A DNA stretch of 64,000 nucleotides from NCBI RefSeq assembly GCF_988242995.1, contig NZ_OZ547043.1; one strand, written 5' to 3'. The position numbers and the translations under genes are program-made. The notes under the pieces are model-generated. The model saw only the letters and a list, made by a program, of their open reading frames with translations. It ran no database searches and had not been told where the DNA came from. Positions 43,010 through 44,996 of the stretch are shown piece after piece (the stretch's first letter is position 1; the number at the start of each line of letters is the position of its first letter).

Positions 43010-44996
43010 ACCGACTCCTGATTCAAATGTATGATGGTATTCATTGAACAGAACAATGGATCCCCCACCGTTGCTGACCGCAAAACATTTACGCGATTAA
43101 TACTGCGCGTAATATAATTAAAAATCCAGCATTCTCAATCCATTACGAAATAAGATGGCATTACGGAATAGCCAGACTTTCTCGTGTTAACGTCCGACAA
43201 AATGCGTCATTGACAGCGGTTTCTGTGGATTGACACATTTCATTCAGATAATGAATTAATGCTACTGCCGGACCAACCAGCAAACGGGCATTGTGTTCTG
43301 AAATCCAGGCTATTGATTCAACGTCAGCGACAGATCTGCGCTGTAAAAGAACTTGTAAAACAACGCAATAGAATTATCCGGAATGGTGGCGACTATGCAC
43401 TAGAACACCACAATTTCGCTCTCTCGGTAAGGCACTGTCACAGCATTCAACAGAATGTGACTTGCCAGATTTATTAGCGCCACCAGATGTTTAACCGGGT
43501 AACCACGACCCAGTCGGGGATATATTCCATCTTCTCGCTGACATCATCAAGAATAAAAAGGTTTATCACACTCAGAGCAACGTTCTTCAGCAGGCGGGAT
43601 AATTCTTCAACATTTAGAAGATGTGTTATTAAAGGCATACAAACTGGACGTATTGTATTTTCTTTTGGTGGTTGACCTAAGGTAGCAGTTTATCCTGATG
43701 CGCTGAGATTTCTGTAATATCTACGTCAACATTCTCCTCGAATAGAAAATGCAGCCCCGGCAAGTGATTCACATTTTTTAACAAAACGTTGTTAGCGTGC
43801 CATTTTCAGAAGCTCTCCAAGAAAGCGAATTCTTTTCTCAAATTCTGCATTCTCAGACACAGCTTTCTACTCCATGGCAATGGCCCAAATACGAAGTTGC
43901 TCAGGATCATTAGTGGTGCTGAGAAGTTAAATAACCATGCGGAGTACCACTCGTCATCACGTATTTATATATCATGAAGCTATTGTTGTGTTTTGTACAT
44001 CAGTAGATGTATTCTGATATACTCCTTTTGCTAGACATAACCTTTCACCTGCTTGCAAAGCTTCTGTGTTCTGACATTGCCAAATTGTTGCAATTCTGTA
44101 TCCAGCCTTCTTTCAGTCATAGCTTCGGGCCGCGATAAGACTCACTGATCTGACCCTGATTCCTCTTGCAGACTTTATAGACCAATTAAAATGCAGTTTC
44201 TGCAGGTCAACGTCTGACCATCATTGTCATCACTCTGGCCATTAGAGTAACCTTCTGCATTCATCCTTTTGTAAAAAGTTTATAGACTGGCCCCCTGAAT
44301 CTCCAGACAACCAATATCACTTAAATAAGTGATAGTCCTGATACAAGTTTTTAGAGTAGTCATTAGTGAACAGATAATTGTTAACTTAGAACCAGTAAAA
44401 TGCAAACGACGCACCACGCTGGGAAAATCGCTGCTATTCAGCAGAGTTTTGTACCGAGAATTGTGGCCAGCCACTTATTGCTCTCGCGTAAGCAGGTATC
44501 CCCATCGTTTACCAGTCCAGCACATCTTGTGGTCAGGCAGAAGAAGAGCAAACTGTTACTGGACTCACTGCATGCATGGTGGAGAAAAATGCCACGCTAT
44601 CCAAAAATCCAGACTGGGAGAATGGTTCAGCTGTGTACTGAATCAGTGGGGCGCACTCTGTTATTACAGTGTTGACGGTCAGGCGGAGGCAGACATAATG
44701 CCGCGGAAAAAGCCCTTTGTGCCATCTGTCTCGGAAATAAAAACTCTTATGACCTTTGTCAAATATTGAGCCCAAAAAGACCTTACGCAGCTCCGGGAGC
44801 TTCGTTATATCGCGGATTAAAGAACCTGAAACAGTCAGACTGTATCTTGGATTTTACAAACTCTTATTCGGGGATTTTAGCCCCATGACGATTTACGCAG
44901 TGAGCTGGCCTCTTTCTATATGCAGGTATTGGCGCATTCTGACCTCCTGAATTCTTTTACGAGGATCACTCATTCCGTGTCTGACTGCTTCAGGGT

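Follow-up and report, generated by a model that had tools for sequence, protein, structure and literature searches.

What occupies the 2 kb without a long open reading frame (ORF) that separate cobU from an IS110-family gene in an Escherichia coli chromosome? The stretch, positions 43010-44996 of a window of 64,000 nucleotides (NCBI RefSeq assembly GCF_988242995.1, contig NZ_OZ547043.1), is in all likelihood ordinary debris, to which at least five different insertion sequences (ISs) and a lost vitamin-B12 gene have contributed. It would represent the decayed cobU-proximal border of a variable genomic island, which in strain K-12 is annotated as the cryptic prophage CP4-44, and repeated IS insertions and deletions would have built this border up. 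Its functional parts are likely limited, to judge from its sequence, to the cobU promoter region and the predicted guide RNA of the insertion sequence ISEc45. The pieces could each be identified and delimited (Table 1), and we infer the order of events from their arrangement.

Composition of the tract

The tract extends from the start of cobU (43009, minus strand) to the stop codon of the IS110-family gene (44997), and the longest ORF overlapping it has 146 codons (44329-44769, plus strand), all others having at most 91. This confirms the absence of long ORFs noted in an earlier sequence-only reading of the same DNA, and it arises because no coding sequence in the tract has escaped truncation and frameshifting; the two longest ORFs, of 146 and 91 codons, span the junction between an IS2-like and an IS66 relic. 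The same reading found no recognisable protein, which holds for inspection by eye but not for the tools applied here: these identify four fragments, from a cobalamin-biosynthesis gene, an IS4-family transposase gene, an IS2-like orfA and an IS66 tnpC. The degraded pseudogenes that it had suspected are thus present. So are ends of mobile elements, namely the left inverted repeat (IRL) of an IS2-like element at 44283, the right end of ISEc45 at 44746 and the right end of a relic IS1111-type element at about 44036. Its third suggestion, a non-coding RNA, is probably borne out by the 3' non-coding region of ISEc45, with its conserved predicted structure and covarying guide segments. Read as an island border, the tract would consist, in this order, of the cobU promoter region, the cobalamin remnant, the IS4 fragment, an orphan segment, the IS1111-type relic, the IS2-like end and an IS66 fragment split by ISEc45.

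The identified pieces are all remnants of ISs or of a metabolic gene, and among the ORFs of 43480-44060 no phage protein family (PHROG, E-value 0.001) came to the support of the K-12 prophage label. The kinds present are all already known, and nothing departs from described families. Nor is the tract as unusual as had been thought, for most pieces are already RefSeq pseudogenes and the K-12 names yeeH, yoeG and yoeH exist. Several complete E. coli genomes carry the whole tract at 100% identity, and 774 of 5426 have at least 80% of it. At identical loci, the NCBI Prokaryotic Genome Annotation Pipeline (PGAP) places an incomplete 'cobalamin biosynthesis protein' (43161-43304) and the IS110-like transposase of ISEc45 (44997-46130) on the minus strand, and a frameshifted IS66-family transposase fragment (44526-44744) and a further 'transposase domain' fragment (46203-46310) on the plus strand. 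A scan of the tract for promoters and terminators returned sites at no more than the level of shuffled sequence (four promoter-like sites against 3.8 expected), and the covariance-model scan that the earlier reading had proposed matched no Rfam family in 42000-47000 at E-values up to 1.

The value of this account lies mainly in annotation hygiene: it explains a 2-kb gene-free stretch of the E. coli chromosome and gives its palindrome a published function, that of IS2.

Table 1. Features of the tract and of ISEc45, in window coordinates
Feature	Position	Strand	Basis or remark
cobU upstream intergenic DNA	43010..43145		conserved in 5409/5426 E. coli genomes
Cobalamin-biosynthesis gene remnant, C-terminal part, internal stop	43146..43316	-	PGAP and tblastn
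IS4-family transposase gene, internal fragment (K-12 yeeH and start of yoeG)	43313..43501	-	PGAP, profile, DNA identity
Orphan AT-rich segment, 534 bp (remainder of K-12 yoeG)	43502..44035		no protein, RNA family or repeat recognised
Relic of 3' non-coding region (seekRNA-encoding) and right end, ISEc11-like IS1111-type element	~44036..44283	-	homology
IS2-like (IS3 family) left end, dead orfA, truncated at 44520	44283..44520	+	alignment to IS2
9-2-9 palindrome, IS2 bp 33-52 (T at 44283 = bp 1)	44315..44334		identity to IS2
IS66-family tnpC pseudogene, C-terminal third, first part	44520..44745	+	resumes at 46192 beyond ISEc45
ISEc45, 1446 bp, intact	44746..46191	-	empty-site comparison with other strains
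ISEc45 3' non-coding region, predicted guide (bridge/seek) RNA, 251 nt	44746..44996	-	fold and comparison with relatives
Closing stem, 16 bp	44994-44979 with 44840-44825	-	fold
Left-flank-matching segment	44923-44916	-	comparison with relatives
Hairpin	44884-44870	-	fold
Right-junction-matching segment	44868-44856	-	comparison with relatives

The palindrome and the IS2-like left end

A perfect 9-2-9 palindrome, TATCACTTA-AA-TAAGTGATA, had been singled out as a possible operator. It is real, although it lies 3 bp to the right of the position first given (44312-44331), and it is the sole inverted repeat in the tract with arms of at least 9 nt set no more than 60 nt apart. What can be discerned about its origin? 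The DNA around it is 83% identical to IS2 bp 1-175, and its first 42 bp (44283-44324) are identical to the IRL of IS2. As described by Lewis and colleagues (PMC3299598), IS2 has a 42-bp IRL, and TGAT at bp 48-51 forms the first bases of a weak extended -10 promoter, P_IRL. Directly upstream of this extended -10 element, TGATAGTCT, lies the docking site of OrfA/InsA, TAAATAA, with bp 39-48 protected; by binding there, OrfA/InsA keeps the adjacent P_IRL of an active IS2 repressed (PMC3299598). The palindrome, which forms the inner end of the IRL, holds both TAAATAA (44322-44328) and TGAT (44330-44333), each identical to IS2. Judged by this identity, the palindrome would be nothing other than the already-described repressor site and promoter of the IS2 left end.

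Its recurrence agrees with such an origin. While no second copy exists in the window (100 shuffles of which gave on average 0.01 matches at up to three mismatches), 4694 of 5426 E. coli genomes contain a 58-bp IS2 end that includes the palindrome, at 20,356 places in all, with a median of three IS2 ends per genome.

The IS2-like segment itself is a relic, not an element. Its orfA is dead, having lost the start codon (ATG to ATA at 44374) and acquired stops and two deletions, of 1 bp and 33 bp. Likewise, IS2 bp 247-1331 are absent from the entire window, so that there is neither orfB nor a right inverted repeat. The reading of the palindrome as an operator therefore stands for its origin, but not for a working host operator at this place. 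Lacking an intact orfA, orfB and a right end, and next to a -10 hexamer in which the last T of IS2 has become C (TAGTCC for TAGTCT), it is presumably a fossil at its present locus.

Comparison with IS2 and with sister relics in K-12 and FDAARGOS_1268 reveals a mosaic. Positions 44283-44337 match IS2 at 55 of 55 positions, including the 42-bp IRL, the docking site and the TGAT of P_IRL, whereas the identity of 44338-44494 to IS2 drops to 77% but reaches 95.5% with the sister relics, this part belonging to an older relic lineage; in all, IS2-like sequence in the window is limited to bp 1-246. A genuine IS2 end would thus have recombined onto an older IS2-like relic. Such a recombination with a real IS2 is probable because the identity switches at 44338, and it would also explain why yoeH and yoeA of K-12 are missing here. 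In both sister relics a 12-bp deletion removes the right arm of the palindrome. The K-12 sister relic (8472-8662 of our locus L005) lies between yoeA and yeeP, is unannotated and has lost the first 13 bp of the IRL.

Could the palindrome still work as an operator where it now lies? InsA acting in trans, or a host regulator, might control the chimeric ORFs or the island from it, or it might be a decoy that titrates InsA. TAAATAA and the full IRL are, after all, 100% identical to those of active IS2, OrfA binding to the palindrome sequence is published (PMC3299598), and IS2 is multicopy in most E. coli, so that InsA is probably available. However, the adjacent -10 hexamer has lost its final T, and downstream lie only the dead orfA and a tnpC fragment. 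Moreover, the K-12 and FDAARGOS_1268 relics have deleted one arm with no trace of constraint, and a single added site among the several IS2 ends of a genome would titrate little repressor. We therefore regard a working operator as very improbable.

The IS4-family fragment and the orphan segment

PGAP labels 43313-43501 an 'IS4 family transposase' with an internal stop and without either terminus. The match to the NCBIfam model transpos_IS4_1 is weak (E-value 9e-4, 18.5 bits, profile positions 132-197), the fragment having about 63 codons; six-frame translations compared with NCBIfam gave this match only, as stops break the alignments. The DNA of the fragment shares 80% identity with an insZ-like pseudogene annotated as IS4-family. 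We initially took 43313-44035 for a single IS4 relic, but direct comparison ends the IS4 homology at 43501, and the K-12 labels yeeH and yoeG can be refined accordingly as IS4-like in part only. The CTAG at 43400-43403, which in K-12 is the insertion site of IS5H, is empty in the window.

The remaining 534 bp of yoeG form the orphan, with a GC content of 0.39-0.40. About 4000 E. coli genomes carry it as a single copy, with at least 99% identity. When 5.8 billion proteins were searched with a stitched translation of 43480-43964, nothing emerged but this locus in E. coli and chimeric ORFs that join the orphan frame to unrelated integrase or IS3 OrfA fragments. The stitched translation has no match in Pfam or PHROG (E-value 0.001) either, nor the orphan one in Rfam; when the ORFs of 43480-44060 were compared with PHROGs, none matched at 0.001, and the sole match under a limit of 0.1 was a family of unknown function (E-value 0.066). 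A literature search on the function of yoeG, yoeH and yeeH returned nothing relevant.

An orphan so conserved invites the idea that it, or the whole tract, encodes an undescribed small RNA or protein, such as that of a 54-codon ORF at 43474-43638. In favour of it are the conservation just described, the failure of protein, PHROG and Pfam searches to find another origin, and the fact that PGAP calls a hypothetical protein of 54 amino acids in some genomes. On the other hand, Rfam gave no match at E-values up to 1, and the 54-codon frame matches only the same locus or fusions to integrase and IS3 OrfA fragments, which resembles junk read-through. K-12 labels the orphan a pseudogene and some strains lack the entire region; as for tests of covariation or codon constraint, the copies are too alike. 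A product of this kind seems to us even less probable than a working operator. Much the same holds for co-option by the host, whether of the orphan as a small RNA or protein, or of the relic IS2 operator as a switch responsive to InsA where the cob operon meets the island: this would be a long shot. A single known gene with a simple frameshift, extending over the tract, is ruled out by segment-by-segment homology, for although several fragments are frameshifted, which we do not count as support, they stem from at least six unrelated families on both strands and meet at sharp junctions (~43313, ~44036, 44283, 44520 and 44746).

Several points nevertheless weigh against debris as a complete account. 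For about 27% of the tract (43502-44035) there is no assignable origin, and there 'debris' is a default label; the orphan is thus the only room left for surprise. Its conservation at 99% or more in about 4000 genomes fits recent common descent, yet it may have a function. The recombination proposed for the IS2/relic mosaic hangs on one switch in identity. Finally, that the relic operator and promoter are inactive and that the ISEc45 RNA is expressed are both conclusions from sequence.

The IS66 fragment and the insertion of ISEc45

The right-hand part of the tract is an IS66 fragment interrupted by ISEc45. When 44745 is joined to 46192, the translation matches the NCBIfam model transpos_IS66 (NF033517) with 42.8 bits (E-value 3.5e-11) at positions 270-385 of 387, a score below the whole-protein cut-off of 180 because one third of the gene remains. 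The reconstructed frame fits the 116 C-terminal profile positions of IS66 TnpC; it differs from an intact TnpC in consisting of the last third only, with internal stops and split by ISEc45, and tnpA, tnpB and the IS66 ends are absent. In FDAARGOS_1268 and many other strains the fragment is uninterrupted. FDAARGOS_1268 also carries an extra 736 bp between the IS2-like relic and the IS66 fragment (5242-5977 of our locus L004), which carry the annotation of a transposase pseudogene, frameshifted and on the other strand; these 736 bp are absent from the window, where the joint falls at about 44517-44520.

The boundaries of ISEc45 are supported not only by empty sites but also by independent copies in other IS66 elements. 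The empty site reads AAAAA-CT-TTATG, the left junction in the window AAAAA-CT-CTTATGACC and the right junction CCAT-CT-TTATG. The CT core is thus present at both junctions (the length of 1446 bp counts one copy), and there is no target duplication. Subterminal inverted repeats of 9 bp, ATGACCTTT and AAAGGTCAT, lie at 44757-44749 and 46176-46184. The transposase scores 279.9 bits over residues 9-364 against NF033542, 'IS110 family RNA-guided transposase' (cut-off 140). With only 59 bp upstream of the gene but 251 bp downstream, 44746-44996 constitutes the long non-coding region of the element, which is probably active.

Other ISEc45 copies occupy the same motif in the IS66 members ISEc22, ISEc43 and ISEc47, and one lies in a restriction S-subunit gene. 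The copies thus lie nearly always in the C-terminal coding region of IS66-family tnpC genes, at the motif AAAAA(C/T)T..TGTTCTTCGG. ISEc45 thus offers a case of one IS family specialised on a conserved coding motif of another.

A predicted guide RNA in the ISEc45 non-coding region

How does ISEc45 compare with the RNA-guided transposons of the IS110 family, such as IS621 with its bridge RNA and ISEc11 and ISEc21 with their seekRNA? Like these, it has a DEDD-type transposase, a 2-bp core (here CT) shared by the two junctions and no target duplication, and its long non-coding region shares with theirs a conserved predicted fold and segments that match its own target flank and its own end. With the IS1111 type it has in common the position of the non-coding region downstream of the gene and the 9-bp subterminal inverted repeats, whereas its transposase is longer (377 amino acids against the 330-350 quoted for IS1111; PMC11187229).

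On the minus strand, the RNA of this region folds with -69.9 kcal/mol (z-score -2.55). We compared it with six relatives whose transposases are 44-73% identical to that of ISEc45, from Enterobacter, Shigella (ISSso6) and the alphaproteobacterial genera Pseudosulfitobacter, Neorhizobium, Sphingobium and Rhizobium (loci L016-L021). All seven elements have a downstream non-coding region, and these follow a common plan, in which a long closing stem is followed by an inner stem with a large loop and by a short GC hairpin. The closing stems, unrelated in sequence between elements and not alignable with MAFFT and RNAalifold, are supported by single-sequence folds only. The inner stems and the hairpin, however, are recovered by RNAalifold, with double changes in 7 of 16 pairs.

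Two segments of this fold follow the insertion junctions of each element. In six of the seven elements, 8-10 nt of the segment after the hairpin match the right-end junction of the same element (ATAAGAGTTT, ATAAGAGT, CATCGGAGTT, ATGAGAGC, ATATCAGCGT, CATAAGAG), the Neorhizobium element (L018) being exceptional with a match of only 5 nt. Non-cognate combinations match by 3-6 nt, except for 7-10 nt among three elements with the common end sequence ATAAGAG. The other segment, at the 3' end of the large loop (loop 1), fits the element's own left flank, and in four elements 6-7 nt are exact. In ISEc45 it reads CATAtAG against CATAaAG (6 of 7 positions) and in the Enterobacter relative CAGGtAG against CAGGaAG, so that the two covary while sharing the mismatch. 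An exact k-mer search for guide segments of ISEc45 in the window alone was not significant, 6-7-mers being expected by chance; it is through comparison with the relatives that the guides become visible.

Covariation of this kind, if read correctly from these sequences, is the signature of the bridge and seek RNAs of the IS110 family. Expression of such an RNA, its binding by the transposase and its requirement for transposition have been shown for ISEc11, ISPa11, ISKpn4 and ISEc21 (PMC11187229). By analogy with the family, and given the covariation, the ISEc45 RNA would pair with its target in IS66 tnpC and with the ends of the element, and it is probably the sole functional non-coding RNA of the tract. 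In ISEc45 and its relatives, nature offers a clean case of guide RNA segments changing in step with the junctions of insertion.

The IS1111-type relic

The relic to the left of the IS2-like end belongs to the same wider family. The DNA immediately following a 339-residue IS110-family transposase gene on the plasmid p103605_146 of enterotoxigenic E. coli matches it at 73% identity over 240 bp, the homology ending 26 bp before the transposase stop codon of that reference element, and the relic aligns with a multicopy ISEc11-like element up to the right end of the latter. In ISEc11, the equivalent region encodes a seekRNA (PMC11187229). The transposase part of the IS1111-type element is absent from the window, but in K-12 the relic continues into yoeH, which corresponds to the transposase C-terminus (residues 284-337, E-value 8e-6). 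This refines the K-12 annotation: yoeH is the C-terminus of an IS1111-type transposase and the DNA before it the non-coding region of the same element. In K-12, the yoeH relic spans NC_000913.3 2068007-2068422 (6008-6423 of locus L005), with the roughly 230 bp preceding yoeH as the decayed non-coding region; the annotation gives no product for yoeH.

The cobU side of the tract

The window is E. coli chromosome in which cobT, cobS and cobU all lie on the minus strand. Upstream of cobU, and on its strand, there is a candidate promoter, TTGAGA-16-TATATT (43138-43111), of a kind no commoner here than in shuffled sequence. Next to it, the cobalamin-gene remnant aligns by tblastn with residues 86-145 of an intact protein of 145 residues from the O121:H19 strain FWSEC0006 (75% identity, E-value 9e-28), which in turn matches the N-terminal part of a cobalt-precorrin 5A hydrolase model (E-value 1.6e-19). 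The parent gene of the remnant would, on this homology, formerly have lain upstream of cobU. A remnant of cbiP had been the expectation, but the evidence favoured a short protein of the O121 strain that resembles the N-terminal part of CbiG, and the remnant is named no more closely than a cobalamin-biosynthesis gene remnant.

In FWSEC0006 (3634-5467 of our locus L010), the CbiG-like ORF of 145 codons, a cobalamin riboswitch, pocR and pduF/pduA are located directly upstream of cobU, the ORF being placed between cobU and the others. This O121 arrangement appears to be another decay stage of an ancestral pdu-cbi-cob region, of which some E. coli retain such genes. No cobalamin riboswitch was found in 42000-47000 of the window (Rfam, E-values up to 1), and the DNA that carries the O121 riboswitch is absent from the window.

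The locus across strains and the remainder of the window

Across strains the border is hypervariable: it gains IS5, IS1 or ISEc45, retains the riboswitch, pocR and pdu genes, or lacks the island. The window sequence from 42400 to 44284, which covers yeeH and yoeG, agrees with K-12 at 99.6-99.8% identity to either side of the IS5H insertion. The window differs from the cobU end of CP4-44 in lacking IS5H, yoeH, yoeA and IS2F, in whose place, from 44283 on, come the IS2-like relic, the IS66 fragment, ISEc45 and another island with a PfkB kinase. In GN4741 (3501-4288 of our locus L011), a pduV fragment and then tmaR-yeeA-sbmC come after cobU, the whole island being absent.

To the right of ISEc45, 46506-47720 encode a protein of 404 residues annotated as a PfkB-family carbohydrate kinase (GC content about 0.38), in which we discern by eye an apparent N-terminal helix-turn-helix region of DeoR type. 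In related strains, the PfkB gene is followed by genes for a glutamine amidotransferase, a drug/metabolite transporter (DMT) and a phosphotriesterase-related protein. Elsewhere in the window, a full IS1A-like copy at 27744-28511 (99.3% identity over 768 bp) and short IS3-family-like fragments at 57255-57382, 59862-59955 and 60289-60345 emerged as side matches of a plasmid-locus comparison.

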